Shown here one piece after another: positions 17,889 to 63,468 of a DNA stretch of 64,000 nucleotides; within the stretch, counting starts at the first letter, position 1, and every line of letters starts with the position of its first letter. Location of the stretch: positions 34,345-98,344 of the forward strand of contig CAZFEN010000001.1 in the NCBI GenBank assembly GCA_964517765.1, given 5' to 3'. The stretch comes from an uncultured Actinomycetota bacterium. Its GTDB lineage: Bacteria > Actinomycetota > Humimicrobiia > Humimicrobiales > Humimicrobiaceae. The translations under genes were made by a program, and so were the position numbers. Below the pieces are notes generated by a model, which saw nothing but the letters and a program-made list of their open reading frames with translations, was not told where the DNA came from and made no database searches.

Positions 17889-17962
17889 TCTTTCTTTTTG
17901 CTAATTAATATTAATATATCTATCACTTTTATGACAAATTTTATCAGATACCTTTTAAGAAA

Positions 17963-20520: not shown

Positions 20521-20581
20521 CTGCTTACTAATTTAATGTATATAATCATTAGCTCATTTACATATTTATACAAATGATATA

Positions 20582-21316
20582 TTACTGCAACGGTCCCTTG
20601 ACTATTTTATTGAAAGTTCGTGGGTATATTACCGGAGATTTTAGTACTTTCTTTATTACCAGAAAAGTCCTATATTCATTTAAATAAGGGACCTCTACCT
20701 CTAGCAAATTATCTACCTTTCCCCCCAATTTTGAGATAACTTCCCTGTTGCTATCAAGTTCGGTGAATATTTTTTTACTTTTATAAAATATAATTTTACC
20801 ATTTATTCTACAAAATGGAATTGTTAATTCGCTTAAAATATTTAAACTTGCAACGGCTCTCGACAGAACAATATCGAAAGTTTCTCTATATTGGGCTTCA
20901 TTACCCAGCTCCTCTGCCCTGCCTCTGATAACCCTGACATTTTTTAATCCTAATTCCTCTACGATCATATTTAAGAAATTGATTTTTTTTAATGTTTTAT
21001 CCAGAAGATAAAATATTTTATCCTTTAAAAAAATAGACAAAAGCGCTCCGGGTAGTCCTGCCCCCGTTCCTAAATCCAGTACTTTCCGCGCAGGATCTTC
21101 ATTATTGAATACCATCTTTTCATATTTAAGTATCGAGATAGAATCCAGAATATGCCTTACAAGGATCCCCTTTTTATCCTTAGTACCAATAAGATTGAAT
21201 TTCTGATTATACTCATAAACTAAATTCAGGTATTTTTCCAGGATTCTTACCTGGCTCTGAGAAAAGTCAATACCAAATTCTGCGAGCGATTCTCTTAAAA
21301 TATGGGAAGTATTCAA
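20582..21316 (-). CDS. rsmG: 16S rRNA (guanine527-N7)-methyltransferase RsmG (GidB)
   Basis: SAM motif LDLGTGAGLPG; conserved position downstream of mnmG. Confidence 0.85.
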   Translation of the reverse strand: MNTSHILRESLAEFGIDFSQSQVRILEKYLNLVYEYNQKFNLIGTKDKKGILVRHILDSISILKYEKMVFNNEDPARKVLDLGTGAGLPGALLSIFLKDKIFYLLDKTLKKINFLNMIVEELGLKNVRVIRGRAEELGNEAQYRETFDIVLSRAVASLNILSELTIPFCRINGKIIFYKSKKIFTELDSNREVISKLGGKVDNLLEVEVPYLNEYRTFLVIKKVLKSPVIYPRTFNKIVKGPLQ

Positions 21317-23184: not shown

Positions 23185-23217
23185 TTCTTCTACTCGATAT
23201 GTCCATTAAATAATTAT

Positions 23218-23235
23218 ATGTTTCACGTGAAACAT
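23218..23235. promoter_or_regulatory. perfect 18-bp palindrome ATGTTTCACGTGAAACAT, 34 nt upstream of the mnmG start, overlapping a TATAAT -10-like hexamer (mRNA sense)
   Basis: Read directly; the same 16-bp core recurs at 24678-24693. Confidence 0.5.
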
Positions 23236-23237
23236 TG

Positions 23238-24659
23238 TTATCTATTCATTATATTTCGCATGATTTTTTCTGCTCTTTCATCAGAGCCCATACTTAATAA
23301 AATCTTTATCATTTTATTAACATCACTGGAATCATCATTTAAAAAAACCTTATCGTTTATTGTTAATATTACACTGCGCGACCTTTTTGATTCCTTTTCT
23401 ATCAGAATACTGATTAGCTGTCCTATATATCCATCTTCCTTATTTATAACAATACTGGTAAGGTTTTTCGCTTCTCTGGAAGCATTTATCCCTGCAATTA
23501 GTCCCTGTGCTGCTGACTCTTCGTAACCGGTGGTTCCATTCACCTGACCGGCGAAAAAAACTCTATTAAGTGTTTTACTTTCCAGATTACTTTTTAATTG
23601 ATAAGGGAGTAAACAGTAATACTCTATTCCATAACCGGGCCTGGTTATTTCCACGCCCTCAAAATTTTTTATTTTTCTTAACATTTCAACCTGTAACTCT
23701 TCCGATACTGCAGTTTCAAGACCATTTAGATATGCCTCTTTTGTATCTCTCCCCAATGGTTTTATTGAAACTTCTTGGCCCTCGATATCTTCTTTTTTTA
23801 ATAATTTAGCTTCTATTGAAAGGACATCTTCCGATATATCCAGGTAATTACCGCTTCTATTATTTTTAATATTGGTCGAATGCCCCCGTAAATATCTGGA
23901 AAAATCTTTATTTATATAAGTCGTATAATAATAAATTTGCTCTCTATTTTTAAAATTACTTTCATATGAAAATGTCCATTGTTTCCTGCTATATGGCTGC
24001 CTTTTCAGACTATTTAAATCAATTGATTTTTTATCCACTATGGGAGCTGCATAATTCTTTAACTTTCCAAACCTGAAACCAAGGTTTTCTAAACCATTTA
24101 ACAGCCTTTTGGAGCATATTTCGCCCTGTCTCCCTGCTTCAATCATATAATCCCCCCAGAAAATTCTTGCTTTAAGGAAAGTACCGGTGCATATAATGAT
24201 CGATCTGCAGAAGTACGTAATTCCATCACTTGTGTATAAGAGATATCCACTACTGTCTTCTTTTACATTTACCGCGAGTCCCTGCCGTAAATCTAAATTA
24301 CTTTGTTTCTCAAGTACCTCTTTCATTGAAAGAGAATATCTTCTTCTGTCAACTATTGCCTGAAGGGCCGCATTGGTCCTATTTTTCGTATTTTTGATTT
24401 CTTTAAGATGAATATAGTTTTTATCTATATTCCTTGAGATTTCTCCACCCAGTAGATCTATTTCTCTTAACAGTTGACTCTTTCCGATACCTCCTACGGT
24501 ACTGCCATATGGCATAATAGCTATACTATCCATATTTATTGATACAAGTAGAGTTTTAGAACCATTCCTTGCAGAACTCAGAGCTGCCTCACAACCCGCA
24601 TGTCCGGCACCTATTACTACCACATCATATATATTTTCTTTTATTGTTTTTATTCCCAT
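23238..24659 (-). CDS. truncated MnmG/GidA-like paralog lacking both conserved cysteines and the C-terminal MnmE-interaction domain
   Basis: 473 aa; FAD motif VIGAGHAGCEAA retained. MPCNPSIGG replaced by MPYGSTVGG, no GPRxCPS motif, ends about 100 aa after AGQVNGTTGYEESAAQGLIAG. Confidence 0.8.
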   Translation of the reverse strand: MGIKTIKENIYDVVVIGAGHAGCEAALSSARNGSKTLLVSINMDSIAIMPYGSTVGGIGKSQLLREIDLLGGEISRNIDKNYIHLKEIKNTKNRTNAALQAIVDRRRYSLSMKEVLEKQSNLDLRQGLAVNVKEDSSGYLLYTSDGITYFCRSIIICTGTFLKARIFWGDYMIEAGRQGEICSKRLLNGLENLGFRFGKLKNYAAPIVDKKSIDLNSLKRQPYSRKQWTFSYESNFKNREQIYYYTTYINKDFSRYLRGHSTNIKNNRSGNYLDISEDVLSIEAKLLKKEDIEGQEVSIKPLGRDTKEAYLNGLETAVSEELQVEMLRKIKNFEGVEITRPGYGIEYYCLLPYQLKSNLESKTLNRVFFAGQVNGTTGYEESAAQGLIAGINASREAKNLTSIVINKEDGYIGQLISILIEKESKRSRSVILTINDKVFLNDDSSDVNKMIKILLSMGSDERAEKIMRNIMNR

Positions 24660-24677
24660 ATCTGAATTTTATAATTT

Positions 24678-24693
24678 TGTTTCACGTGAAACA
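24678..24693. promoter_or_regulatory. second copy of the palindrome core TGTTTCACGTGAAACA, upstream of the mnmG-like paralog
   Basis: Read directly; 34 nt upstream of the paralog start, followed by a TATAAA hexamer in mRNA sense. Confidence 0.5.
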
Positions 24694-24732
24694 TTTTCGC
24701 CAAATATCCTTATTATGTTGTTTTTTGACACT

Positions 24733-26121
24733 TTATTTACCTATGCAGAATTGACTGAATATTTCTTCCAGAATATCCTCTCTCACAGTTTCTCCTATTA
24801 TCTCTCCCAGTAGTTCAAATGCGGTCTTTAAATCATAAGAAGGAAACTCTTCGGACATCTTATCATTTACTGCTTCCTCTGCTCTATTCAAAGATTTTTT
24901 TACCTCTTCCAATATCTTTTTATGTCTGCTATTAATAATGATTTTCTCCTCCAGATCGATATCCCCACCACCCAATATAATAGATTTTATTTTATTTTCT
25001 AATTCCTTAATTCCCTTTCCTTTTAATGCAGAAATTTTTATAACATATTTCTCATCAAAATACTTCTTAATCTTTAATACTTCCAACTTTTGTTTTAAAT
25101 CTATTTTATTAATACAACAAATAATACTTTTCCCTTTTATTTTATTTATTATTTGTAAATCCATTTGTTCTAACTTCCTGTTTCCGTCCAAGACCAGTAA
25201 AATCAATTCAGCTTCGTTTATATGTTTTAAACTTCTATCTACTCCTATTTTTTCTATGGCGCTTCTTGTTTTTCTTATCCCTGCTGTATCGACCAGAATA
25301 AGCGGTATCCCTTCGACATACAAGATTTCTTCTACTGCATCTCTCGTCGTTCCGGGAATTGGAGTCACTATTGCCTTTTCTTTCCTGGATAGCAAATTTA
25401 ACAAACTGGATTTCCCCACATTTGGTTTTCCGATAATTGCTATTTTGACACCATTTTTTATAATTTCCCCCTTTTTCTCGTTTATTATCAATTCTTCAAG
25501 TTCTGCCCTTATTTTTTTTACTTCTCTGGCAATTTCCCGATATGGCGTTACTTCCAGGTCTTCTTCAATAAAGTCTACCGGGGCTTCCAGCTGTACACGT
25601 ATATCCAGAAGATTTCTTCTCAGTCTCTTTATCTCTTCTTTTATATTGCCCCGTAAATTCTTAGCAGCAAGCCTCAGGCTCTGTTCCGTTCGGGATCTTA
25701 CCAGATCTATAACTGCTTCTGCCTGTGATAGATCTATTCTTCCATTCAGAAAAGCTCTTTTTGTAAATTCTCCCGGATCCGCTATTCTTGCACCATTTTC
25801 AATACATAATTCCATTGTTTTAGTAGTAGCAATTATTCCCCCGTGACAGTTTATCTCTACAACATCTTCCCGTGTATATGAACCAGGTTTTTTCATTACT
25901 GTAATAATTACTTCATCAATGAAATGGCCACTATTATCAATAATATGTCCGTAAAGCATACTATACGTACCAATATCTTTTATCTTCTTTTTATTTTTTG
26001 ATTTAAATATCTTATCAGCTATAGAAATCGACCTATCACCGCTTAATTTGACTATACCAATCGCTGCTTCACCGGCTCTGGTTCCCACTGCTACTATTGT
26101 ATCGTTTATTTCCGCCTTCAT
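24733..26121 (-). CDS. mnmE: tRNA modification GTPase MnmE (TrmE)
   Basis: 462 aa; G1 GKPNVGKSSLLN, G-domain motifs, C-terminal CIGK. Confidence 0.9.
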   Translation of the reverse strand: MKAEINDTIVAVGTRAGEAAIGIVKLSGDRSISIADKIFKSKNKKKIKDIGTYSMLYGHIIDNSGHFIDEVIITVMKKPGSYTREDVVEINCHGGIIATTKTMELCIENGARIADPGEFTKRAFLNGRIDLSQAEAVIDLVRSRTEQSLRLAAKNLRGNIKEEIKRLRRNLLDIRVQLEAPVDFIEEDLEVTPYREIAREVKKIRAELEELIINEKKGEIIKNGVKIAIIGKPNVGKSSLLNLLSRKEKAIVTPIPGTTRDAVEEILYVEGIPLILVDTAGIRKTRSAIEKIGVDRSLKHINEAELILLVLDGNRKLEQMDLQIINKIKGKSIICCINKIDLKQKLEVLKIKKYFDEKYVIKISALKGKGIKELENKIKSIILGGGDIDLEEKIIINSRHKKILEEVKKSLNRAEEAVNDKMSEEFPSYDLKTAFELLGEIIGETVREDILEEIFSQFCIGK

Positions 26122-26202
26122 TTTTACATTTATCTCCTATGGTGCTTTTGAAATTTCTGATTCTTATTATATTTAATATTTATATTTATTCAAAAATAAA
26201 AC

Positions 26203-26241
26203 CAATAAAAAAATGGCACACCCCGGTGCCATTTTTTTTTA
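26203..26241. terminator. A-run / TGGCAC-ACCCCG-GTGCCA hairpin / T-run: bidirectional intrinsic terminator between jag and mnmE
   Basis: Classic stem-loop flanked by A7 and T9 read from sequence. Confidence 0.6.
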
Positions 26242-26260
26242 TATATAATCTTTATATTTT

Positions 26261-26845
26261 TTATTTGCTGCTTTTTATTGGATAAATTATTATTCTTCTG
26301 TTAGGTTCGTCGTATCTGCTTCTTGTGGTTACATTGCTAAATCTTGCAAGCAGGTTATGTATTATTTTTCTCTCGTAAGAATCCATTGGTTTTAATGCTA
26401 TTTTTCTTCCTTCGTTAATTGCTTTTTTTGCCATAAATATCGCAGTTTTTTTTATCCCATTTATTCTTTTTTTCCTATAGTCTTTTATATCTATCATTAT
26501 ATTTCTATCTACTAATTTTTTCCTCTTCCCAATCAAGTTTATGATATATTCAAGCGCCTGCATATTCTTTCCGTCCCGGCCTATAGCGATTCCCAGATCC
26601 TCTCCCTGGACCGACAGCCTTAATTCTTCCGAATCTGTTTTAATCTTTACATCTTCTCCGGGACATATAAGTTTTAATATTTTTTTTAAAATCCCTTTTA
26701 TTTTTTCAAGTCCATCCTTTTCTATAACTTTATCTTCTGCCATGTTTTTAGGGGTATTTTCTATTAACCTGTTTCTTTTTTGTTCTTCTTCCAGTGATTC
26801 TACAAATGAATCTATAGCATCTTTTATACTTTTATCTTCGGTCAT
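26261..26845 (-). CDS. jag: Jag/KhpB RNA-binding protein (KH + R3H domains)
   Basis: 194 aa; C-terminal R3H (YERKIIHNLLARFSNVTTRSRYDEPNRRIIIYP); conserved position after yidC. Confidence 0.8.
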   Translation of the reverse strand: MTEDKSIKDAIDSFVESLEEEQKRNRLIENTPKNMAEDKVIEKDGLEKIKGILKKILKLICPGEDVKIKTDSEELRLSVQGEDLGIAIGRDGKNMQALEYIINLIGKRKKLVDRNIMIDIKDYRKKRINGIKKTAIFMAKKAINEGRKIALKPMDSYERKIIHNLLARFSNVTTRSRYDEPNRRIIIYPIKSSK

Positions 26846-26871
26846 CTACGGCACCTCCTGGGATATAAGTA

Positions 26872-27729
26872 TTATCTTTTCTTTTTTCTTTTCTTTTTTA
26901 ATTTTCTTCTTATTGACTTCTTCTCTTCTTCGCTTAATTCGAGACTTCCTGTAAGACTCTCCTTTCCCTGGCTTAATTCTTCTTTTACTTTTTCTTTTTT
27001 AACAAGTTTATTTACAAGCCACTGCTGGCCAATGGACCATACATTTGTTGTTACCCAATATATCAGTATGCCTGATGGAAACTGCCAGGATATAAACCCA
27101 AATACTAAGGGCATTATGTACATGATCTTTGACTGCCTGGCGTCTGTTGTCGTCATCTTCATTGACAGAAACATTGTTGCAACCATCAGAATAACCAGGA
27201 TATAATAAGGATCCCTCGAGTTTAGATTCATCCATAAGAAATTATAATTGGGATTTGCTACTCCAGTCAGTGTAAAGTTCGCAGTAGATTGAAATCCTGT
27301 CAGTCCTATATTTATACTGTTGGCAACACCATCTAAACTAAAACTTCCCAAAACATTTGTTACAATTTCAGAGGGGTTTCGGAGTGCCTGGAACAATGCA
27401 AAAAATACAGGCATCTGAAAGAGTAGAGGCAAGCATCCTGCCAGCGGATTTACATTATTTTTCTTATAAAATTCCATTGTCTCCTGCTGCAGCTTTTGCT
27501 TGTCATCTTTATATTTTTTTTGTAGTTCTTTAAGTTCCGGCTGTATTTTCTGCATTTTTGCCATTGATCTGGTCTGGCTTATTGTAAGAGGGACAAGGAC
27601 TATCCTTACTATTATAGTCAGCAGTATTATAACTATGCCGTAATTCGTAACTACATGATTATATAAAAAAATAACTATGTACTCTAATCCATGCTGGATT
27701 GGGCTTAATATTTGTAATAACCAACTCAA
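26872..27729 (-). CDS. yidC: membrane protein insertase YidC (short form)
   Basis: 285 aa; YidC/Oxa1 core with lysine-rich C-terminal tail; conserved synteny. Confidence 0.85.
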   Translation of the reverse strand: MSWLLQILSPIQHGLEYIVIFLYNHVVTNYGIVIILLTIIVRIVLVPLTISQTRSMAKMQKIQPELKELQKKYKDDKQKLQQETMEFYKKNNVNPLAGCLPLLFQMPVFFALFQALRNPSEIVTNVLGSFSLDGVANSINIGLTGFQSTANFTLTGVANPNYNFLWMNLNSRDPYYILVILMVATMFLSMKMTTTDARQSKIMYIMPLVFGFISWQFPSGILIYWVTTNVWSIGQQWLVNKLVKKEKVKEELSQGKESLTGSLELSEEEKKSIRRKLKKKRKKKR

Positions 27730-27744
27730 TTTATAACCTTTCTT

Positions 27745-27954
27745 TTATTTCACAGGATCATATCCGCCTCTATTAAAGGGATTGCATCTTAAAATTCTAT
27801 ACATTGATTTAATACTACCTTTTAATACACCGTATCTACTAATAGCCCCGATTGCATATTCCGAACAGGTAGGGTAGAACCTGCAGCTTTTTGGTAATAC
27901 GGGGGAGATATATTTTTTATAACACTTAATTAAAAATATCAGTATTTTCTTCAC
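27745..27954 (-). CDS. yidD: membrane protein insertion efficiency factor YidD
   Basis: 69 aa; [20 protein letters not shown] signature. Confidence 0.85.
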
Positions 27955-27979
27955 GATTAAACCGTTGATAGATTATTAT

Positions 27980-28321
27980 TTACAGTTGGCCGATAAGAAA
28001 TGAAATCAAAATATTTTCCAGTATCTTTTTTATTTCCAATAAGCTTGCAGTAACAATGATCGGTTTAGCCACAATCAAAATATCTAAATTATTGTAACTT
28101 TCTATTTCAACTTTTCTTAAAGCTTCTCTTAACACTCTTTTAATTCTATTTCTTAGAACGGCTCCGCCTATTTTTTTACTTACTCCTAATCCGATTCTTA
28201 CAGATCCACAAATTTCTTCTTTTTTGAATATATATAAAGTTAAATATTTATCCCTTTTACATAAACCTTCTTTTATTACTCTTGAAAAATCACTTTTTCT
28301 TTTAAGTGTTTCAAACTTGAT
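27980..28321 (-). CDS. rnpA: ribonuclease P protein component RnpA; no canonical start codon in frame (probable AUC start)
   Basis: Translation (I)KFETLKRKSDFSRVIKEG...GLGVSKKIGGAVLRNRIKRVLREAL aligns with B. subtilis RnpA. The frame contains no Met and follows directly after the rpmH TAA in the same frame. Confidence 0.65.
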   Translation of the reverse strand: MKFETLKRKSDFSRVIKEGLCKRDKYLTLYIFKKEEICGSVRIGLGVSKKIGGAVLRNRIKRVLREALRKVEIESYNNLDILIVAKPIIVTASLLEIKKILENILISFLIGQL

Positions 28322-28342
28322 ATTAGTCTTCCTTTTTCCTCT

Positions 28343-28477
28343 TTAAGCAGAAAGCTTTTTTCTTCCTTTTTTTCTCCTGCACGCAATTACAGCTCTGCCG
28401 GCTTTGGTTTCCATTCTTATCCTGAAGCCATGAACCTTTTTTCTTTTCCTTGCGTTCGGCTGAAATGTCCTTTTCAT
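28343..28477 (-). CDS. rpmH: 50S ribosomal protein L34 (below the ORF-track size cutoff)
   Basis: 44 aa [44 protein letters not shown] matches the bL34 consensus. Confidence 0.9.
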
Positions 28478-28520
28478 CTTTTACCCAATCTATATATTAT
28501 TGTTTTCAGTCAAGTAGTAG

Positions 28521-28549
28521 ATTATACATTTTAATTTTTCTAATATCAA
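28521..28549 (-). promoter_or_regulatory. sigma70-type promoter for rpmH (TTGATA-17-TATAAT on the minus strand)
   Basis: Hexamers read as reverse complement; about 40 nt upstream of the rpmH start. Confidence 0.5.
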
Positions 28550-28721
28550 GGTTGCCATATTTAAATAAAGTGTTCCTTTAAGCCTTTTTGTGTTTGTCTT
28601 TTCTTTTGAGTACATTATTTATTCAAACACCTGTTCTGGTTAAAGACCCTTCCTGAAAATTATATTTTTTTTATATATATTATGGTGCAATTTCTCATAG
28701 TATTTCAAAAATTTAAACAAC

Positions 28722-28862
28722 TTTTCAACAACTGTTGAAAAAATTGTTGAAAACTTAAAAAATCACACTAAATTATATGTCAAATGATTTTACTCCGAGG
28801 GATTTATCATACAATCTAGTAGCTTTTTCCTTGTTAAAATATTATTATTAATCTGTTGAAAA
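28722..28862. repeat. cluster of four 9-mers TTTTCAACA/TGTTGAAAA, including a perfect inverted repeat TTTTCAACA-AC-TGTTGAAAA; DnaA-box-like (TTATCCACA variant) or operator for the adjacent regulator
   Basis: Instances at 28722-28730, 28733-28741, 28745-28753, 28854-28862; related TT[GC]TCAACA 9-mers recur in the dnaA-dnaN intergenic. Confidence 0.45.
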
Positions 28863-28956
28863 CCTTAAGCTTCTGAAAAGAAAATGAAAAGCAATATCGT
28901 TGATTGATATGTTTTCTGTTAAATAAAACAATTCGCATTTAAAGTTGACATTAATA

Positions 28957-29811
28957 ATGCCTGACGAAAATACTAAACCAAATAATGCTGACGATTCCAA
29001 CAAAATCTATGGAAACATTGAAAAAATACCGGTCAGAATCGCAGTCTATGATAATATGCGGAGCATTCCAAGGATAGTGAATCTCAGCTATGATAATATT
29101 GCGGACTTCATTAATGAAACCACCCAAAAAACCTATAGTCTATCCCATGAGATTGGCGGGAGAATTCCTTATACAATAATAAAAGAGATAATAGAGAATC
29201 TTATACACGCAGATTTCAAAGAAGTTGTGATTACTGTGTTGGAAAGGGGAGACCATATAATCATAACGGACCAGGGACCGGGAATCGAAGACAAAGAAAA
29301 AGCTTTCCTACCGGGATATACTTCCGCTACGAGTAAAATGAAAGAATACATCAGGGGAGTGGGTTCGGGTTTTCCGATAGTAAAAGAAACTATAACTTTT
29401 TCCGGAGGATCTATCGATGTAAAAGACAATATAAAAAGGGGGACGGTAATATCTTTAAAACTTGGACAGCCGGAAAAGAGTGATAGCGTAAAGGATACGG
29501 AAATCAAGACAACCGGTGAGACGATACCTGTTATTCCCGACGAGGATAAAAAAACTCCGGCAGATGGCATAGACAAATTTGATCATAAAGTATTATCCGA
29601 CAGACAAAAGAAGATCCTTTTTGTGATCCTGGAACTGGAAGAAGCCGGGCCTTCTACAATAGCCAGTGAGCTGGGTTTTAGTCTCTCTACTTCATACCGG
29701 GAATTAATCTACCTGGAAAAGAACAAAATGCTTGCCTCCGGCAGCAACGGCAAGAGAAAATTATCTAAAAAAGGCTTAAAATACCTTGAATATTATTCAA
29801 ATACTATTTAA
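28957..29811 (+). CDS. GHKL/histidine-kinase-like ATPase domain fused to a C-terminal winged-helix DNA-binding domain; function unknown
   Basis: N-box EIIENLIHA, G1 DQGPGI, G2 GVGSGF; C-terminal KILFVILELEEAGPSTIASELGFSLSTSYRELIYLEKNKML. No SD; start at ATG 28957 (TTG 28945 and ATG 29056 are alternatives). Confidence 0.6.
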   Translation: MPDENTKPNNADDSNKIYGNIEKIPVRIAVYDNMRSIPRIVNLSYDNIADFINETTQKTYSLSHEIGGRIPYTIIKEIIENLIHADFKEVVITVLERGDHIIITDQGPGIEDKEKAFLPGYTSATSKMKEYIRGVGSGFPIVKETITFSGGSIDVKDNIKRGTVISLKLGQPEKSDSVKDTEIKTTGETIPVIPDEDKKTPADGIDKFDHKVLSDRQKKILFVILELEEAGPSTIASELGFSLSTSYRELIYLEKNKMLASGSNGKRKLSKKGLKYLEYYSNTI

Positions 29812-29823
29812 GATTAGAGTACT

Positions 29824-31185
29824 ATGTCGGACCTACAAAACATCTGGAAAAATACTCTCGAAGATATTAAAAACAATATTAATCTCCCTACATATAAAGC
29901 CTGGTTTGAACATATAACACCCCTTTCGTTAAAAAAAAACTGTTTAACGGTTTCAGTCGGCAGTAACTTCGCAAAAGAGTGGCTTGAGTCCAGATACTCT
30001 AATCTTCTATCCGAATCAATAAAAAGAGTGACCAACAATTCATGTAAAATAAAAATTGTTACTGCACCCGGAAGTTCCGAAAATACCAGCGGCAAATATG
30101 ATACCTATATTGGCGAAACCCTCGAAGAGGAAGGGTATCCCTTTAAACAAAACAAAAATTCTCTTTTCAATTCAAAGTACACTTTTGATACATTTATCGT
30201 TGGAAGCAGCAACAGGTTTGCCTGTACCGCCTCTCTTGCAGTCAGCGAGAATCCCGGCAAAGCTTATAATCCATTGTTTATTTACGGGGGAGTAGGATTG
30301 GGAAAGACGCATCTTCTGCATGCAATCGCACAATATACGATGCAGCTGCATCCCAATAAAACTATAAAATATGTTTCGGCCGAAAGATTTCTTAATGATT
30401 TTATTAATGCTCTCCGTTATAAAAACATCTTTTCTTTTAAAGAAAGCTATAGAAACAACGATATTTTGCTTGTCGATGATATACATTTTCTCGAGGATAA
30501 GGAGGCCAGCCAGGAAGAATTTTTTCATACATTTAACGCTCTTCATGATACCAATCGGCAGATAGTCCTCTCGAGCGACAGGGCGCCAAAAAATATTTCC
30601 ACTCTTGAGGAAAGACTCCGGTCCAGGTTTGAATGGGGCCTGGTAACAGATATCAAGCCGCCGGACCTTGAAACAAGACTGGCAATTTTAAAAAATTATT
30701 CTAAAAGAGAAAATATATCGGCCTCTGATGATATATTAAATTTAATTGCCGAAAAAATTACTTCTAACATCAGAGAGCTGGAAGGTTCCCTTACAAGAAT
30801 AGTCGCATTTGCTTCCCTTACCGATTCCAAGCCTGATTTAAACATGGCCAAAAACATACTAAAAGATATTTTACCCGATGACATAGAACACAAAATAAGT
30901 ATTCAAACAATTATTAAAGAAGTATCAAGATATTTCTCCATACCCATAAATGATATTATAAGTGCCAAGAGGAATAAATTCATATCACATGCGCGCCAGC
31001 TGGCAATGTATCTATCCAGAGAGCATACCAGCAGTTCTTTGCCCAGAATCGGAAAGTCTTTTGGGAACCGTGACCATTCAACTGTAATATACGCCGTCTC
31101 AAGAATCTCAAATCTTATAAATACCGATAAAACTGTCTACCTGCAGATTCAGGAAATTACAAACAAGATAAAGACGTCTACATAA
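29824..31185 (+). CDS. dnaA: chromosomal replication initiator DnaA
   Basis: 453 aa; AAA+ Walker [15 protein letters not shown], sensor motifs, C-terminal DNA-binding domain IV. Confidence 0.95.
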
Positions 31186-31321
31186 AACCTGACTGCCCAT
31201 GTTTAAAACCTGTTAAATAATAAAGAAAGTTCTTAGCAATCAGCGGCTTTTCTGGTTCAAAACTAACCATCTTCTTTTTTTTATATATTTCTTTTACGGC
31301 TTTGAACAGCTTTAAACCATA

Positions 31322-31470
31322 TTGTCAACAAGTATCATTGCGGGACAGGCCGCAATTTCACTGTCTTTTTTTACTCTTCCAACATTCTCAACATGTATTA
31401 TAACTATTACTGACTATTTAAATTAAACATTATATATAATAAAATATGTTTATATTTCAAACATTAAAAG
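31322..31470. promoter_or_regulatory. putative oriC segment: three same-orientation 9-mers TTGTCAACA / CTTCCAACA / TTCTCAACA followed by a very AT-rich tract (candidate DUE), between dnaA and dnaN
   Basis: Motifs at 31322-31330, 31375-31383, 31385-31393; AT-rich 31396-31470; a GCCGCAAT hairpin after the dnaA stop. Confidence 0.4.
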
Positions 31471-31486
31471 AAATTAGAGGGTTACA

Positions 31487-32596
31487 ATGAAATTTCAAAC
31501 TACAAGGACCGACCTTCTGGAAACTATTTTATTTGCCAGCAGAGCAATAAGTCCCAAAGCTTCATCGTTTATTTTGAATGGGATAATGCTTGATGCTGAA
31601 GAGGGCTTAACCGTATATAGTACCGACCTGGAGACAAGTATAAAATGTACAATGGAAGTAAAGATTCTTGAAAAAGGGAAAGCGGTGGTACCCGCAAGGA
31701 TTCTGGCGAATATATTAAAAAGCCTGAAAGAATCAAAAATAGAGCTGGAGCTGGATAAGGCAAAGAACCAGGTAAAAATTAGTTGCGAAAACGCTTTTTT
31801 TACATTAAACACACTATCTCTGGAAGAATACCCGGTTTTTCCCGAAACAAGGAAAGAAAATTATTTAAAGGTGAACCTGAACAAATTTAAGGACATGGTA
31901 TCAAAAGCAGAGAAAGCGGCATCTATGGATGAAAGCAGAGCAATCTTAACCGGAGTGCTTCTGGAGATCGGGGACGACATGTTGAGCATGGTAGCAACTG
32001 ACAGCTACAGGCTTGCTCTGGTTAAAGAAAAAATAGGCGGCGGAAGACAGCCGATAAAAGTCGTGGTACCTTCAAAAGTTCTCGATAATATTGTTAAAAG
32101 TGAATTTAAGGATGGAGATATCGAGATAAACATCGAAGAAAATCAGGCAAGTTTTTACATGGAAAGCGCCAGCAAGAAAAAGATTATAATGGTTTCAAGA
32201 TTGCTTTCCGGAAAATTTCCGGAATACAAACAGCTTATTCCTCAGAACATGAAGCACGACATAATAGTAGATAAGGAAAAAATGCTTGAGGTAGTAAAGA
32301 GGATTTCATCTATCTCGCAGGACAACATACCAATAAAGACCACTATCGATAAAGGTAAAATAACGGTATCTATGAATATCAGGGAAGTTGGAAGTTCCAG
32401 CGAGGATTTTGATGTTTCATATGGAGAAGAAAAAATGGAGATAGCCTTTAACCCCGAATTTTTAATCGACGGTATAAATATAATGGATGAGAAGAATATA
32501 ATATTCTCGATAGAGGAACCTCTTAAGCCTATTTTAATAAAATCTGAAAAAAACAAAGACTTGATTTATTTGCTTATGCCCATCAGGGTCTCCTAG
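31487..32596 (+). CDS. dnaN: DNA polymerase III beta sliding clamp
   Basis: 369 aa; three-domain clamp; follows dnaA. Confidence 0.9.
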   Translation: MKFQTTRTDLLETILFASRAISPKASSFILNGIMLDAEEGLTVYSTDLETSIKCTMEVKILEKGKAVVPARILANILKSLKESKIELELDKAKNQVKISCENAFFTLNTLSLEEYPVFPETRKENYLKVNLNKFKDMVSKAEKAASMDESRAILTGVLLEIGDDMLSMVATDSYRLALVKEKIGGGRQPIKVVVPSKVLDNIVKSEFKDGDIEINIEENQASFYMESASKKKIIMVSRLLSGKFPEYKQLIPQNMKHDIIVDKEKMLEVVKRISSISQDNIPIKTTIDKGKITVSMNIREVGSSSEDFDVSYGEEKMEIAFNPEFLIDGINIMDEKNIIFSIEEPLKPILIKSEKNKDLIYLLMPIRVS

Positions 32597-32635
32597 GACA
32601 TATAGATAGCCTGGAAATAAAAACGAAAATAAACC

Positions 32636-52007: not shown

Positions 52008-54128
52008 TTATTTAGCAGAGTTCTTCCCTTTGATAATCTCAAAAAATTTTTCTATAAGATATGGATCAAATTGAGTACCCGCACATCTTTCTAATTCCTT
52101 TAGTGCCTCTTCTTTGGATATACCCTTACTATAGGGTCTATCACTTATCATGGCATCATAGGCATCGGTAATTGCGAGAATCCTGGATATAATTGGAATT
52201 TTGCCGCCTTTCAGACCACCTGGATACCCGGAACCGTCCCACCTTTCATGATGGTATAATATCCCGGGCGCTATTTGTGCCAGATCGGGTGATGATTCGA
52301 CTATACGGTAACCGATCTCTGAATGTTTTTTCATTACTTCCCATTCTTCGGGGGTCAGTTTACCGGGTTTTAAAACTATATTATCGGGTATGGAAATCTT
52401 ACCAATATCATGAAGCATTGCCAGTAGCTTTAATTTGTTAAGCTCAATAATATCCAGATTTATTTTTTTACCCAGTAACACACTTAATCTTATCAATCTT
52501 TCCGCATGTTCTTTTGTTTCGTAATCTCTTTCTTCCAATACTTTTTTTAGGGATAAAATCAATGTACTTCGCATACTTTTACCTTCGGATAATTTATATT
52601 CAAACATTGTATTTTCGGCTTCTTTTACCACATCATTGATGTTTTGATCGCTGCTTTTTTTTAACGAGAACCCAAAAGTTACATTCAGGGGCATGATAGT
52701 AGTGCTACTTTTTTTACAATCCCTTAACATTTTACTTATTATCTTTAAAGCATCTGCCTTTTCTGTTTTTTGTAGTATTATTGCAAATTCATCTCCCCCG
52801 TAACGACACAAAGCACCCTTATCATGCAGGCTGTGCTTTAAAATTCTGGCTGTTTTTTTTATCAATTCATCTCCTTTTGCCCGTCCAAATGTATCATTTA
52901 TTATTTTCAGGCCATTTATATCTCCGAGAATAATACAAATTGGAAGCTGTTTCTTTTTGTCTACTCTCATCAATTCTTCTTCAAAGAAATACTGGTTGAA
53001 AATATTCGTCAACCGGTCGTGATAAGATTGATAGTATAGTTGTTTTTCTTTTTCTTTTCTGATAGTTATATCATTCATAATCAATAGTTTTCCCATGGTT
53101 TTCCTGTAATAATTAAAAACAGTTGATGCTCTGGCATTATAATATCTGACATGCTTATTGATTATTAATTCGATATCACTTTCAAAATTTTTGATTTTAA
53201 AGTTTAACAAAGAATCCAAAAGTTTTTTTAATTTCTCTTTTTCAGGCGTTAGATAAGAAAGTTTGCTTACTACGCAATTAATGTCTTTTTTTCTTGTTTT
53301 ATCATATTTACAACCTTCCTCGATGATGTCATCAGCCAGATTATTCTGCTCAACGACCCGACCATCATTATTGAATAAAAAAATCGCATCACCGATATTA
53401 CTCATTATTTTCCCTTTTAAAGTCATTATAAAGTTGGAATAAACAAGAAATAAACTGAAAGAAATGAAACCATATAGAAAGATAATGGCCAATTCGCTTA
53501 AAGGCATTATTTTTAGTATAGCAAGTTCCATCAGTACCTGTATTATCGAAGTTCCGATAAAATAAACCAGAAGTCCTGTAAACAAGTAATACATTTGCTG
53601 ATTGGTCTGCCTGATTCTGAATTTACGATACATGTTCTTGCCCGTCAAAAACAAGGTGCCAAGACCGATAGGCGCTATATAAAAAGCACCTATATATTTA
53701 AAAAAAGGTGAATATATAATGTATCCATAAAAAACACTTTTAGTACCGATTTGATCATATACCAGAAGAAGTATAAATATTACCACGGCTGTGAGATATG
53801 CTGCCACGAGTTGGACATAGACCCTGTATTTTTTGTAGTCTTCGATCTGTGTGAATCTTATTACCAGATGAAGAACAATTGCGGGAATTAAAAGAGTAGT
53901 CAGGGTCAATATTCTCGCAGATAAAATTAAAAGGTTTATTGCGGAAAAGCCCCAGAGCAGTATTATATTAAAGATAGAAAAAACAAAAACATTGACTGAT
54001 AGTATAATAAAAGGAACATTGTTTTTCTTTATGGTTTCTCTGCTGGCAATCATAAATACTGAGATCGGAATAAATACCAAACTTAATGCCGACATAGAAA
54101 CAGTTAACGCCCAGACTATTTTTTCCAT
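52008..54128 (-). CDS. polytopic membrane sensor with GGDEF and canonical HD-GYP domains
   Basis: 706 aa; about 7 N-terminal TM helices; GGDEF (RYGGDEFAIIL); HD-GYP (LHDIGK, HHERWDGSGYPGG). Confidence 0.8.
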   Translation of the reverse strand: MEKIVWALTVSMSALSLVFIPISVFMIASRETIKKNNVPFIILSVNVFVFSIFNIILLWGFSAINLLILSARILTLTTLLIPAIVLHLVIRFTQIEDYKKYRVYVQLVAAYLTAVVIFILLLVYDQIGTKSVFYGYIIYSPFFKYIGAFYIAPIGLGTLFLTGKNMYRKFRIRQTNQQMYYLFTGLLVYFIGTSIIQVLMELAILKIMPLSELAIIFLYGFISFSLFLVYSNFIMTLKGKIMSNIGDAIFLFNNDGRVVEQNNLADDIIEEGCKYDKTRKKDINCVVSKLSYLTPEKEKLKKLLDSLLNFKIKNFESDIELIINKHVRYYNARASTVFNYYRKTMGKLLIMNDITIRKEKEKQLYYQSYHDRLTNIFNQYFFEEELMRVDKKKQLPICIILGDINGLKIINDTFGRAKGDELIKKTARILKHSLHDKGALCRYGGDEFAIILQKTEKADALKIISKMLRDCKKSSTTIMPLNVTFGFSLKKSSDQNINDVVKEAENTMFEYKLSEGKSMRSTLILSLKKVLEERDYETKEHAERLIRLSVLLGKKINLDIIELNKLKLLAMLHDIGKISIPDNIVLKPGKLTPEEWEVMKKHSEIGYRIVESSPDLAQIAPGILYHHERWDGSGYPGGLKGGKIPIISRILAITDAYDAMISDRPYSKGISKEEALKELERCAGTQFDPYLIEKFFEIIKGKNSAK

Positions 54129-58090: not shown

Positions 58091-58552
58091 ATGCAAAAAA
58101 AGTTAATATGTGCATGTGCAGCAAAAATATTGATAATATCACTAATACTTTTTATTTTTATCATCCCCTTGAATATTCTCGAAGCTGAAACCTATGAAGA
58201 GTTTCTGAGTAATCATCAGTTCGGATGTACCAAAATGGAACCCGGAACCCAAAAAGCAGTTTATCTGACAGAGTATAGTATCGCCGATATTAAAAAAAGG
58301 AAAGAAATCTATGAGTTAGTATCGAATACCGAACTTAACAGTATCGTATTCGATGTGAAGGATGACTCCGGCAGTATTGGCTATGACAGCAATGTAGAAC
58401 TGGCAGGTGAAAGCGGGGCCGAGAAAAATTACTATGATATAGATGCGGTACTGAGGGAAATGAAAAGCAAAGGTATTTACAGCATAGCCAGATTTGTTGT
58501 TTTTAAGGACAATATTTTACCACGATTCAGGCTGCAGAAGATCTGGAAATAG
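58091..58552 (+). pseudogene. DUF4015 (putative glycoside hydrolase) N-terminal fragment, truncated relative to family length
   Basis: KAVYLT...NSIVFDVKDDSGSIGYDS...KGIYSIARFVVFKDNIL matches the DUF4015 N-terminus; ORF stops after 153 aa and the downstream sequence continues briefly in another frame. Confidence 0.4.
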
Positions 58553-59678: not shown

Positions 59679-60611
59679 CTAGTGCCTGTTGTTATAATCT
59701 CTTACTAGCTTTGCTATTTCTTTTATATGTTCGGGCTTACTTCCGCAGCATGCTCCCAGTATCGATGGCTTATAGGGAAGAAATTTGGATATATTGGAAG
59801 CCATGATTTCCGGAGTCTCGTCAAATATAGTTTTACCATCTACCAGCGAAGGCATTCCTGCGTTGGGCTGAAAGATAAGTCTGGCATTTGCATTTGCTTC
59901 TCTCATCTTTTTAACCACATTTAACATGGTGCCAGAACCTACGCTGCAATTTGCCCCGACAATGTTGCTGCCGGCATCGATTAAAACATTTACAACGTCT
60001 TTAGCCTTGTTCCCCATTAGAGTTACTCCATTTTCACCAAAAGTAAGGCAGCACGCAATGGGGATATCTTTTGATATTTTTCTTATTGCTTTGATCGCAG
60101 TCAATGCTTCGTTTAGATCCATTATTGTTTCGATGACCATAAGATCTACTTTTCCTATTAAAGCATCCGCCTGTTCTGAAAAAGAGTCCAGCGCTTCTTC
60201 ATATTGCAGAGGGCCAAAAGGTTTCAGAAGTTTACCGAGGGGTCCTATATCTCCGGCAATGAAGATAGGTTTTCTATCGCCGTATGTGGCTCTATAGATA
60301 TTGATTGCTTCATTTACAGCACTTACTGCATTCTCATTTATCTCTTTTGTTTTATTTTGAAATCCATGGAATTCTAGTTTGGTTGGAGTGGAATTAAAAG
60401 TATTGGTAATAATAATATCGGATCCGGCTTTGAGATAGCCTAAATGTATATCTATGATTTCTTTTATATGGCTGCTGTCCAGATTCAGAGAATCAGGCAG
60501 CACAGAATAACCTGATGTCATCAGGGTTGCTCCCATAGAACCATCGGAAACAAGAATTTTTTCATCTAAAATGTCTAAAAATTCTTTTTTATTGGCATTT
60601 TTATTTATCAT
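59679..60611 (-). CDS. homocysteine S-methyltransferase domain protein (MetH N-terminal domain-like / MmuM-like), stand-alone
   Basis: 310 aa; N-terminus ILVSDGSMGATL; C-terminal GACCGS zinc-ligand cysteines. Confidence 0.75.
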   Translation of the reverse strand: MINKNANKKEFLDILDEKILVSDGSMGATLMTSGYSVLPDSLNLDSSHIKEIIDIHLGYLKAGSDIIITNTFNSTPTKLEFHGFQNKTKEINENAVSAVNEAINIYRATYGDRKPIFIAGDIGPLGKLLKPFGPLQYEEALDSFSEQADALIGKVDLMVIETIMDLNEALTAIKAIRKISKDIPIACCLTFGENGVTLMGNKAKDVVNVLIDAGSNIVGANCSVGSGTMLNVVKKMREANANARLIFQPNAGMPSLVDGKTIFDETPEIMASNISKFLPYKPSILGACCGSKPEHIKEIAKLVRDYNNRH

Positions 60612-60703
60612 TTATTTCTTCTCTGCCATTTTGTCTTTTTAAGCATCTTTTTATGCTTTTTCTTTCTCATTTTTCTTTTTCGCTTTTTGATAACAGAACT
60701 CAT
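60608..60703 (-). CDS. 31-aa highly basic micro-protein resembling ribosomal protein bS22 (below the ORF-track cutoff)
   Basis: MSSVIKKRKRKMRKKKHKKMLKKTKWQRRNK vs mycobacterial bS22 [21 protein letters not shown]..QRR; stop TGA overlaps the ATG of the downstream gene (ATGA). Confidence 0.55.
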   Translation of the reverse strand: MSSVIKKRKRKMRKKKHKKMLKKTKWQRRNK

Positions 60704-60863
60704 GGTACTTCCTTGCCGATATATATCTTTATAAAATAGAAAAAATTTAGATATGAAGAAAATTCTCTCATATCAGGTAAGCTATTATACCAGAAATATT
60801 TCCGTATAGAATAATAAAAAGTATTATTTTTTATCAAAAATATATTTAAAATGTAGATTTCTA

Positions 60864-60892
60864 TTGACATACAATATGTAGTATATTAATAT
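60864..60892 (+). promoter_or_regulatory. sigma70-type promoter for nrdJ (TTGACA-17-TAATAT)
   Basis: Hexamers read from sequence about 200 bp upstream of nrdJ. Confidence 0.4.
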
Positions 60893-60916
60893 TTAGGTAC
60901 ACACAATATAAGGAAT
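60869..60916. promoter_or_regulatory. two NrdR-box-like 16-mers (ATACAATATGTAGTAT and ACACAATATAAGGAAT) whose starts are 32 bp apart, overlapping the nrdJ promoter
   Basis: 13/16 and 12/16 matches to NrdR-box consensus acaCwAtATaTwGtgt; 32-bp phasing typical of tandem NrdR boxes. Confidence 0.35.
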
Positions 60917-61092
60917 CAAAACAGTTCTCCTGAAACAGTAAGAAATATAAACTTGCGAAGGTTAAAATAATTGTTTAGGCGTTTTACGGCGGATAATACT
61001 CACTTCATATGGGGAGCCATAGATTGAGACGAATATATTTTAAATCAAACAAGTTTTACAGATAAATAATTAAATCATGGTGGTGTTGATTT

Positions 61093-63468
61093 ATGGAAGA
61101 TACTAAAAAATCAAAAAGTAAAAAGAGCCTTAATGATTATTACATGAGTAAAGAAATTAACCTGTCCGAAAATGCTGTAAAAGTTCTGGAAAGAAGATAT
61201 TTAAAAAGGGATGAGGAAGGAATTCTTCTGGAAAAACCCGGAGACATGTTTATAAGAGTCGCAGGGAATATCGCATCTGCCGAAAAGAAGTATGGTAAGA
61301 CAGAAGAAGAAGTAAAAGAAGTAGAGAAGCAGTTTTTTGATATCATGGCTGATCTTGATTTCCTTCCTAATTCTCCGACCCTTATGAATGCTGGGAAAGA
61401 ACTTCAACAGCTGGCAGCGTGTTTTGTTTTGCCTGTAGGAGATTCCATGAATGCTATTTTTGAGGCACTGAAGGAAACGGCACTGATCCAGAAATCCGGT
61501 GGAGGAGTGGGGTATTCGTTTTCCGATATAAGACCGAAAAATGATGTGGTCCTTTCTACCAAAGGTGTCTCAAGCGGACCTATTTCTTTTATGACTGTTT
61601 TTAATGCGGCTACCGATACTATAAAGCAGGGTGGAACCAGAAGAGGTGCAAATATGGGAATACTGAGAGTGGATCATCCCGATATTCTGGATTTTATTAC
61701 CTCAAAGGAAAATAATGAGAAATTGACCAATTTCAATATCTCGGTGGGAGTTACGGAAAAATTTATGAAAGCTGTCGAAAATGATGACGAGTATGAAATC
61801 ATAAATCCCAGAACCAAAGAGGTGGTAGATAGATACAGGGCAAAGGAAGTATTCGGTAAGATCGTAGATCACGCCTGGAAGAATGGCGATCCGGGAATTA
61901 TATTTCTGGATAGATTGAATAAAGATAATCCAACACCGAACCAGGGGCAGATAGAAAGTACCAATCCGTGCGGCGAACAGCCCCTGCTTCCCTACGAGGC
62001 GTGCAATCTGGGATCCATAAATCTGGCCCATATGGTAAAAGAGGAAGAGGGCATAAAAAAAGTAGATTATGACAGATTAAAGAATGTCACTTATACGGCG
62101 GTAAGATTTTTAGATGATGTTATCGATATGAGCAGATACCCTCTTGAAAAGATAAGTAAAATGGCTCATGGTAACAGAAAAATTGGTCTGGGGGTCATGG
62201 GATACGCTGACCTGCTTATAATCCTTGGTATACCATACGACAGTGAGGAGGCGCTTGAACTTGCCCAGAAGATAATGAGTTTTATTCAGGATGAATCCAA
62301 AAACGCATCACGGGAACTGGCAAAAGAAAAAGGGATCTTTCCAAACTTCAAGGGGAGCGTTTACGATAGCCCCGATGGTTACGAGATCAGAAATGCAACG
62401 ACTACCACTATTGCCCCTACGGGAACCCTGAGTATTATAGCTGATTGCTCAAGCGGTGTAGAACCAATATTTGCCATATCATTTGTTAAAAATGTCATGG
62501 ATAATGATAGGCTGGTCGAGATTAATGATCATTTTGAGGAACTTGCAAACAAAGAAGGATTTTATAGTAAAGAATTGATGGAAAAGATAGCCGAAAAGGG
62601 CAATTTAAAAGATATCGAGGAGGTTCCTTCAAGATACAGGAGGGTATTTATCACGGCACATGAAATATCACCGATATGGCATGTAAGGACTCAGGCCGCT
62701 TTTCAAAAATTTGTGGATAACGCAGTTTCGAAAACAGTTAATTTTTCAAATGATGCTACGGTCCAGGATGTGGAAAATGTATATATGCTGGCTTACAGGC
62801 TCGGCTGTAAAGGAATAACCATTTTCAGGGATAAAAGCAGGGGAACCCAGGTTCTTGAGGTGGAAGGAAAGAAAAAAGCAGAAGAGGGGTTAAAAGAAGT
62901 TACTGTCCGGAAAAAAGTAAAAGAAAAGAAAAAAGGTTTTCCTGAAGTCAAAGAAGAAAATGAAGTTATTGAAGAAAATAAAGAAGAAATAAAAGATGTG
63001 AAATTAAAGCCCCGATCCAGACCGGAAGTCACCCATGGCATGACCAAAAAGTATAAAATAGGAAATTGCGGGAAGCTTTACGTGACCGTGAATTCAGATG
63101 AAAATGGTATCTGTGAAGTATTTATAAATACAGGTGAAGAGGGCTGTACCGCCCTGACAGAAGCAGTGGGCAGGCTCATAAGTGTCGCTATCAGGTCAGG
63201 TATAGATATAGAATCGGTAAAGAAACAGGTGATAGGAATAAGATGTATAACCTGTATTGCCGATAATGAAACCCATGTCCTTTCCTGCCCGGATGCAATG
63301 GGTAAAGCAATAGAGTTTTATATGAACGGATCCAATAAGTTTGATTTGAGTAAAACCAGTGGTCCCAGGTCCATTATGATATGTCCGGAGGATGGCTGCG
63401 GAGGTATAATGGAACCTGAAGGAGGCTGCTATATCTGCAGAAATTGCGGTTATTCCAAATGTTCTTAA
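61093..63468 (+). CDS. nrdJ: adenosylcobalamin-dependent (class II) ribonucleotide reductase
   Basis: 791 aa; class II RNR core, K/E-rich linker, C-terminal zinc ribbon CPEDGCGG...CYICRNCGYSKC. Confidence 0.85.
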   Translation: MEDTKKSKSKKSLNDYYMSKEINLSENAVKVLERRYLKRDEEGILLEKPGDMFIRVAGNIASAEKKYGKTEEEVKEVEKQFFDIMADLDFLPNSPTLMNAGKELQQLAACFVLPVGDSMNAIFEALKETALIQKSGGGVGYSFSDIRPKNDVVLSTKGVSSGPISFMTVFNAATDTIKQGGTRRGANMGILRVDHPDILDFITSKENNEKLTNFNISVGVTEKFMKAVENDDEYEIINPRTKEVVDRYRAKEVFGKIVDHAWKNGDPGIIFLDRLNKDNPTPNQGQIESTNPCGEQPLLPYEACNLGSINLAHMVKEEEGIKKVDYDRLKNVTYTAVRFLDDVIDMSRYPLEKISKMAHGNRKIGLGVMGYADLLIILGIPYDSEEALELAQKIMSFIQDESKNASRELAKEKGIFPNFKGSVYDSPDGYEIRNATTTTIAPTGTLSIIADCSSGVEPIFAISFVKNVMDNDRLVEINDHFEELANKEGFYSKELMEKIAEKGNLKDIEEVPSRYRRVFITAHEISPIWHVRTQAAFQKFVDNAVSKTVNFSNDATVQDVENVYMLAYRLGCKGITIFRDKSRGTQVLEVEGKKKAEEGLKEVTVRKKVKEKKKGFPEVKEENEVIEENKEEIKDVKLKPRSRPEVTHGMTKKYKIGNCGKLYVTVNSDENGICEVFINTGEEGCTALTEAVGRLISVAIRSGIDIESVKKQVIGIRCITCIADNETHVLSCPDAMGKAIEFYMNGSNKFDLSKTSGPRSIMICPEDGCGGIMEPEGGCYICRNCGYSKCS

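Follow-up and report, generated by a model that had tools for sequence, protein, structure and literature searches.

The stretch of DNA considered here, 64,000 nucleotides of contig CAZFEN010000001.1 (the window; position 1 is its first letter), contains on its minus strand, at 60608..60703, an open reading frame (ORF) that starts with ATG, runs for 31 codons and stops with TGA. Its product, MSSVIKKRKRKMRKKKHKKMLKKTKWQRRNK, can be identified with high confidence as bS22, a micro-protein of the 30S ribosomal subunit, and the micro-ORF as a genuine bS22 gene. Directly downstream on the same strand lies a gene for a stand-alone homocysteine S-methyltransferase-domain protein of 310 residues (59679..60611), whose start codon overlaps the bS22 stop codon; the two genes share nucleotides 60608-60611, which read ATGA. 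Taken as a whole, we consider it very likely that bS22 leads an operon of two genes belonging to this bacterial clade, that its product is the ribosomal protein, and that translation of the methyltransferase gene is probably coupled to it. The initial annotation had described both the minus-strand ORF and its ATGA overlap with the 310-residue gene, and its coordinates, start, stop and length all agree with the sequence and the ORF list, as does the overlap.

The resemblance to bS22, which had been proposed without database searches, was upheld by sensitive ones. Against the NCBIfam equivalog model NF047430 (ribo_bS22), the peptide scores 46 bits where the cutoff is 34 (E 4.2e-12), with residues 1-31 aligned to profile positions 1-31, and it also exceeds the gathering score of the Pfam family PF08213 (COX24_C/DUF1713; 27.3 bits versus 23). 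A phmmer search of PDB sequences gave significant matches from E 5e-6 to 8e-5. Residues 1-30 align with bS22 of Cutibacterium acnes (8crx_X, E 4.9e-6), with the mycobacterial bS22 sequence common to 5o5j, 5o61 and 5v93 (E 2.5e-5), and with 6dzi_j (E 8e-5). All five matches at E 8e-5 or better are labelled either bS22/S22 or DUF1713, and the alignments shown are to the actinobacterial type of sequence, whereas mitochondrial mS38 entries match weakly (E 0.27-0.76). Identity to the mycobacterial and Cutibacterium proteins is 60-63% over 30 residues, and Lys16 is retained in the aligned positions. By direct count, 13 lysines and 5 arginines make up 18 of the 31 residues (58%), and both the length and the basicity of the peptide fit the norm for bS22, which is about 30-35 residues long and extremely basic.

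In the ribosomes of mycobacteria, Cutibacterium, Bacteroidota and Borrelia, bS22 is a polybasic helix of ~30 residues that occupies a 16S rRNA pocket beside helix 44 (h44) and the decoding centre; the pocket is formed by h2, h27, h44 and h45. The protein was seen in mycobacterial ribosome structures, is conserved in the phylum Actinomycetota, can be dispensed with in M. smegmatis and affects how aminoglycosides gain access, Lys16 being the reported contact to the aminoglycoside pocket of h44 (PMC10081302). It occurs in Bacteroidota as well (PMC7797042), and in Borrelia, where 61% of its residues are Lys or Arg, it had gone unannotated until density from cryo-electron microscopy revealed it and was the single ribosomal protein to escape mass spectrometry (PMC10618245). 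The peptide of the window is presumably likewise incorporated into the ribosome.

An ORF this short could in principle be a chance frame in AT-rich, purine-rich DNA. Short ORFs are abundant in the window, with 1,274 candidates of 20-80 residues when every possible start codon is counted over its whole length, and a spurious 56-residue ORF overlaps the very same region. The micro-ORF is nevertheless more than a chance occurrence, because it is the sole bS22-like small ORF among all 1,274 (E 3.9e-14, the runner-up standing at E 0.34) and because it matches the curated model as closely as described above. The pattern of substitutions argues in the same direction. In a codon alignment of the window with nine relatives, 21 of the 31 codons vary; 17 of these differ by synonymous changes only, including switches between AGA and CGT for arginine, and the remaining four exchange nothing but K for R or V for I. 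This is the signature of a translated peptide under purifying selection. The Shine-Dalgarno and promoter elements described below are conserved too, and the neighbouring 56-residue ORF, in contrast, is open in no relative. Together with the presence of the gene in relatives, the model match and the synonymous pattern refute the chance reading, to which we accord practically no probability.

The 56-residue ORF itself (60700-60870, minus strand) deserves a brief description. Its TGA overlaps the ATG of bS22 in another ATGA, and it spans the bS22 promoter and leader. As a candidate for a further upstream cistron it was rejected as spurious, since in no relative does an ORF with a start codon reach even 10 residues in that frame.

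The micro-ORF and its position are conserved in all of the relatives sampled, as the initial annotation had proposed checking. In a scan that took one genome per species, nine of nine Actinomycetota genomes that have an orthologous methyltransferase gene carry bS22 immediately before it in the same orientation. The same arrangement was found on the contigs fetched for six of six further clusters of methyltransferase orthologues (52-67% identity). These six contigs may overlap the nine genomes in species, which puts the number of independent lineages between nine and fifteen. Among the relatives sampled, which span 50-97% methyltransferase identity, there is no counter-example to the pairing within the clade. 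The flanks, meanwhile, vary while the pair stays: one relative (L090) carries an AAA_14 gene between bS22 and the divergent class II ribonucleotide reductase gene nrdJ, and three others (L091, L092 and L096) have different downstream genes. In most relatives for which the upstream gene is visible, nrdJ is syntenic with the pair.

Outside the clade, the two genes are found apart. No bS22-like ORF lies within 3 kb of the methyltransferase gene at any of 71 non-actinobacterial loci. Of at least 600 metagenome stretches that match a bS22 alignment, a single one, L087, passed the tblastn filter and provides our view of bS22 contexts beyond the clade; at this high-GC actinomycete locus, bS22 follows a gene of the excisionase type with a helix-turn-helix (HTH) motif and is succeeded by a large, convergently oriented ORF, with no methyltransferase gene. 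The Rv0500A-Rv0500B pair of M. tuberculosis has the same order, with bS22 again after an excisionase-type HTH gene. The data fit a scenario in which the gene order arose once in the clade and was then inherited, and the pairing is best described as a conserved but lineage-specific operon layout rather than a new kind of system.

Does the pairing also reflect a real functional connection, such as co-regulation of methionine supply with ribosome production or an interaction between bS22 and the enzyme? The persistence of the pair down to 50% methyltransferase identity, through changes of the flanks in four relatives (L090, L091, L092 and L096), and the tight junction in 14 of 15 relatives speak in its favor. 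Yet rearrangements have hardly any room to strike within a junction of -4 to 21 nt, and one would expect it to persist without selection. The absence of the pairing at the 71 non-actinobacterial loci and the unrelated surroundings of bS22 in L087 also count against a connection, as does the lack of any further methionine or one-carbon genes in the window. Moreover, because the whole neighbourhood is syntenic, including the divergent nrdJ, conservation of the pair cannot by itself prove a functional tie to methionine metabolism. We regard such a connection as improbable. The unusual linkage of a ribosomal micro-protein to methionine metabolism that the initial annotation had highlighted is real and kept in all relatives sampled, but it is confined to one clade, and conservation alone does not demonstrate the functional tie.

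The region upstream of bS22 holds putative expression signals. A Shine-Dalgarno-like AAGGAAG (60708..60714, minus strand) is positioned 4 nt before the bS22 ATG, and an extended -10 element, TGgTATAAT (60784..60792, minus strand), about 80 nt upstream of it; both were read from the sequence, and we assign them their functions on that basis as putative ribosome-binding site and promoter. AAGGAAG or AAGGAGG is retained before bS22 in L001-L008, and in the same relatives ATTATTTCTGnTATAAT (TGnTATAAT) is the best-conserved stretch upstream of the gene. The element is missing from the list of our promoter scan because that scan requires a -35 match. The two genes are presumably co-transcribed.

At the junction, ATGA is identical in the window, in L001-L007 and in L088. 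In L090 the two genes abut with a spacer of 0 nt, and in L096, L094, L091, L092 and L008 they are 12-21 nt apart. No obvious Shine-Dalgarno sequence precedes the methyltransferase gene either in the window or in 14 of 15 relatives (those with spacers of -4, 0 or 12-21 nt). The overlapping ATG is the only sensible start of the 310-residue ORF, because family profiles align from residue 9 onwards and the next in-frame methionine, at position 26, falls within the domain. Both properties by which a coupled pair is recognized are in place, namely a conserved stop/start overlap or short spacer, and a second gene without an obvious ribosome-binding site of its own. On account of the ATGA overlap and the missing second Shine-Dalgarno we infer, with moderate confidence, translational coupling from bS22 to the methyltransferase gene. 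Of the coupled translation that the initial annotation had read into the overlap, the structural part stands, and the coupling itself keeps that provisional status.

A different role for so small an upstream ORF would be chiefly regulatory, i.e., as a leader peptide that senses the charging of Met, Lys or Arg tRNA and adjusts methyltransferase expression. Its overlap with the downstream start, the lack of a Shine-Dalgarno sequence for the downstream gene, and the presence of three Met codons in 31 ahead of an enzyme of the methionine-synthesis type are all compatible with such a role. The conservation of the amino acid sequence, however, reaches far beyond the clade, to the 60-63% identity with bS22 of ribosome structures noted above, and the peptide passes the bS22 equivalog model; Met12 occurs throughout the family and is no peculiarity of this setting. 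Ribosomes that stall at Met codons would, moreover, be expected to lower rather than raise expression of a coupled gene for methionine synthesis. RNA structure offers no help to the leader-peptide idea either. The leader, bS22 and junction together fold without significant structure (z-score -0.91), nothing resembles an attenuator, and a hairpin in the leader (GATATGA...TCATATC) that had been entertained as one was dropped after it proved to be kept in L001 and L002 only. Searches against Rfam, with gathering thresholds over the full 64 kb and with E up to 10 over 60500-61300, returned matches at chance level and no riboswitch or ribosomal-protein leader. A chiefly regulatory function is in our judgment very unlikely.

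The preferred reading, of bS22 as the ribosomal leading gene of an operon, suggests the following sequence of events. The conserved extended -10 promoter would give rise to a single transcript with a leader of about 75 nt devoid of significant structure, and the good Shine-Dalgarno sequence would support strong independent initiation on bS22. Ribosomes fresh from terminating at the bS22 stop codon would then translate the methyltransferase; such termination-reinitiation is the most likely route because the second gene has no recognizable ribosome-binding site. An implication of this mechanism is that methyltransferase output would be tied to bS22 synthesis.

Several points weigh against this reading or parts of it. 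In L009, the most distant relative, the spacer between bS22 and the methyltransferase gene is 147 nt long (L009 2833-2979), and the two genes may be expressed separately there. The A-rich, unstructured junction could permit the second gene to initiate independently without a Shine-Dalgarno sequence; coupling might then be optional. Given the synteny of nrdJ, shared ancestry may simply account for part of the conservation of the pair. Finally, the 64-kb window contains no rRNA gene, and so lacks the 16S rRNA gene whose product would form the bS22 pocket. As a separate observation, TTTACTAAA and TTTAGTAAA recur within the L009 spacer in both direct and inverted orientation; the spacer may act as a terminator or attenuator, or be an inserted repeat, and thereby uncouple the genes in this relative.

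It is tempting to go further and propose that expression of a MetH-like module is hard-wired to bS22 translation, so that methionine capacity is kept proportional to the making of ribosomes. A bolder version would have bS22, or its translation, serve as a sensor that joins ribosome status to one-carbon metabolism. If true, this would be a regulatory design that has not been described for bS22 or for methionine synthases; taken jointly, though, these ideas strike us as improbable, and beyond co-expression we found nothing that ties bS22 mechanistically to methionine metabolism. Linkage of ribosomal and metabolic genes is in itself not exceptional, because operons of the rpmF-plsX type exist. 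In the rpmF-plsX-fab operon of E. coli, the gene for L32 leads genes of lipid synthesis, and there too a tiny gene for a ribosomal protein opens an operon of metabolic genes. That operon differs from the one considered here in ribosomal protein, pathway and phylum, and the comparison is one of layout alone.

The downstream protein is a member of the homocysteine S-methyltransferase superfamily equivalent to the homocysteine-binding module of MetH. PF02574 matches it with 204 bits over the entire profile (positions 1-283 of 283, residues 20-303), and Pfam finds no further domain. Among solved structures it is closest to the homocysteine-binding barrel at the N-terminus of Thermotoga MetH (1q7m, E 6e-48), with BHMT matching far more weakly. 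There are 297 homologues at E 1e-30 or better, of which the 120 listed are 51-97% identical and almost all about 305-312 residues long; PF02574 is the sole domain recorded among the 120, and the zinc ligands Cys222, Cys288 and Cys289 are invariant in 120 of 120 aligned family members. None of the named NCBIfam equivalogs is matched above its cutoff (PRK08645, 237.9 versus 453; PRK07534, 184.5 versus 338; metH, 157.9 versus 1010; PRK09485, 87.7 versus 215), and by these scores the protein is a member of the family only, not assigned to MetH, BHMT, MmuM-type HMT or the bifunctional YitJ-type HMT/MTHFR. Neither a corrinoid-binding nor a pterin-binding partner was found in the 64-kb window in a Pfam search of 56 ORFs (all but the smallest), nor were other methionine or one-carbon genes.

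The neighbouring nrdJ (61093-63468, plus strand), a 791-residue ORF with the domains of class II ribonucleotide reductase, diverges from the bS22 operon. In the shared intergenic region are two palindromes resembling NrdR boxes, ATACAATATGTAGTAT at 60869-60884 and ACACAATATAAGGAAT at 60901-60916 (together 60869..60916, plus strand), which are spaced 32 bp apart and overlap a promoter-like site, TTGACA-17-TAATAT, at 60864-60892. A single box is not significant across the window (three matches to the consensus versus 1.1 expected), and the assignment rests on conservation of the tandem in relatives. The pair of boxes at 32-bp spacing lies upstream of nrdJ in 11 of 12 sequences (the window and 10 of 11 relatives); L003 has just one box within the mismatch limit. 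The tandem boxes are probably the NrdR operator of nrdJ, and we assign them to that gene and not to the bS22 operon. The nrdJ genes of most relatives (L002-L007, L009 and L088-L093) are split by an intein at about residue 293, beside the NPCGEQ active-site motif. The inteins have Intein_splicing domains, some with a LAGLIDADG endonuclease, and the products are 971-1211 residues long. In the window and in L094 the gene is intein-free and encodes 791 residues, and the L001 copy is uninterrupted across the site.

The host is a member of an uncultured, low-GC lineage of Actinomycetota near Ca. Hydromicrobium, of the class Ca. Humimicrobiia. The GC content of the window is ~36%. The nine genomes closest by the 310-residue protein, at 50-90% identity, are all from uncultured Actinomycetota, one of them being Ca. 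Hydromicrobium; past these nine, matches fall to 39% identity or less and belong to other phyla. An actinobacterial host, at which the initial annotation had hinted, is thus confirmed by the nearest genomes.

The window also includes the chromosomal origin region, at about 17900-32600, with dnaA some 30 kb away from the bS22 locus. On the minus strand of the origin region are parB, parA, rsmG, mnmG, a second gene of the GIDA family, mnmE, jag, yidC, yidD and rpmH (28343-28477), and on the plus strand dnaA (29824-31185) and dnaN (31487-32596). The minimum of the cumulative GC skew, at 28-32 kb, falls between the genes on the rpmH side and dnaA/dnaN. In the interval between rpmH and dnaA, the usual place of the DnaA-box region of oriC, is a 288-residue ORF (28945-29811, plus strand) with a HATPase_c domain; its C-terminal region looks HTH-like by eye and has no model match. 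Elsewhere in the 64 kb are three GGDEF proteins (7252-8097, 11403-12860 and 52008-54128, all minus strand), two of them fused to HD_5 of the HD-GYP type and two with PAS domains, which suggests extensive cyclic di-GMP signalling in the host. Closer to the operon, a 153-residue ORF (58091-58552, plus strand) matches DUF4015, a putative glycosyl hydrolase family, over just the initial 94 of its 313 positions. A full-length DUF4015 gene (374-380 residues) is found nearby in L088 and L094, and the short form is common to L002-L004; the ORF of the window may be a truncated gene.

bS22 itself is well known, and the peptide described here is a new member of its family, encoded in a clade-specific operon of an under-annotated actinobacterial class. 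The protein is thereby placed in a class of Actinomycetota (Ca. Humimicrobiia and relatives) that branches deeply, is uncultured and has a low GC content. The gene calls available in public include the 31-residue gene in four of 15 related contigs (L081, L082, L088 and L096), with no Pfam hit on record for any of the four, and miss it in the other 11. Ribosomal-protein inventories of such metagenome-assembled genomes are consequently incomplete, bS22 being overlooked in roughly three of four contigs. An exact look-up of seven bS22 variants, including the mycobacterial one, found no match, but the collection evidently omits proteins this short, and the look-up says nothing about annotation. For comparison, RefSeq annotates bS22 by name as a matter of routine in Actinomycetes, with 927 of 929 Streptomyces genomes carrying the label (PMC13118837). 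The cluster formed by nrdJ and the bS22-methyltransferase pair is a handy synteny marker for the clade, and the conserved overlap would be a simple natural case of termination-reinitiation coupling in Actinomycetota. The practical value of these observations is modest; they leave the knowledge of bS22 unchanged and do not show that the ribosome and methionine metabolism are mechanistically linked.

Among known systems, the closest counterpart of the micro-protein is bS22 of actinomycetes (M. smegmatis MSMEG_0945, M. tuberculosis Rv0500B and C. acnes; PDB 5o5j, 5o61 and 8crx), which belongs to the same family by the curated model and to the same phylum. The proteins are of similar length (31 residues here versus 33) and charge, and Lys16 and the SVIKKR...KKKH core are kept. 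They differ in that the peptide of the window is two residues shorter, has Trp26 where the others have Val or Ile, and ends in RRNK. The genomic setting is different as well, the window representing an uncultured class of ~36% GC in which the gene leads an operon that it shares with a homocysteine methyltransferase gene. The bS22 proteins of Bacteroidota and Borrelia (F. johnsoniae, P. gingivalis and B. burgdorferi bb0822) are also tiny, polybasic, housed in the same 16S rRNA pocket and often missed by gene callers (PMC10618245, PMC7797042), whereas the peptide described here is of the actinobacterial sequence type. More distant is mitochondrial mS38 (AURKAIP1/Cox24), with which the peptide shares the Pfam COX24_C/DUF1713 domain. 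Both mS38 and eukaryotic eL41 occupy the same location in the small subunit as bS22 (PMC10081302, PMC10618245), but mS38 is a longer protein, eL41 is eukaryotic and cytosolic, and neither is encoded in a bacterial operon, unlike bS22 of the window.

For the methyltransferase, the natural comparison is with the split, cobalamin-dependent methionine synthase (split MetH) of Phaeobacter inhibens (PGA1_c13370/MtgE) and Ruegeria, three-gene systems in which the homocysteine module also stands alone (PMC5764234, PMC12478193). The protein of the window is likewise a stand-alone PF02574 module, and its zinc-ligand cysteines are intact. It differs in having no corrinoid or pterin partner within the 64 kb, and the split systems, for their part, have not been reported with a ribosomal-protein gene in front.

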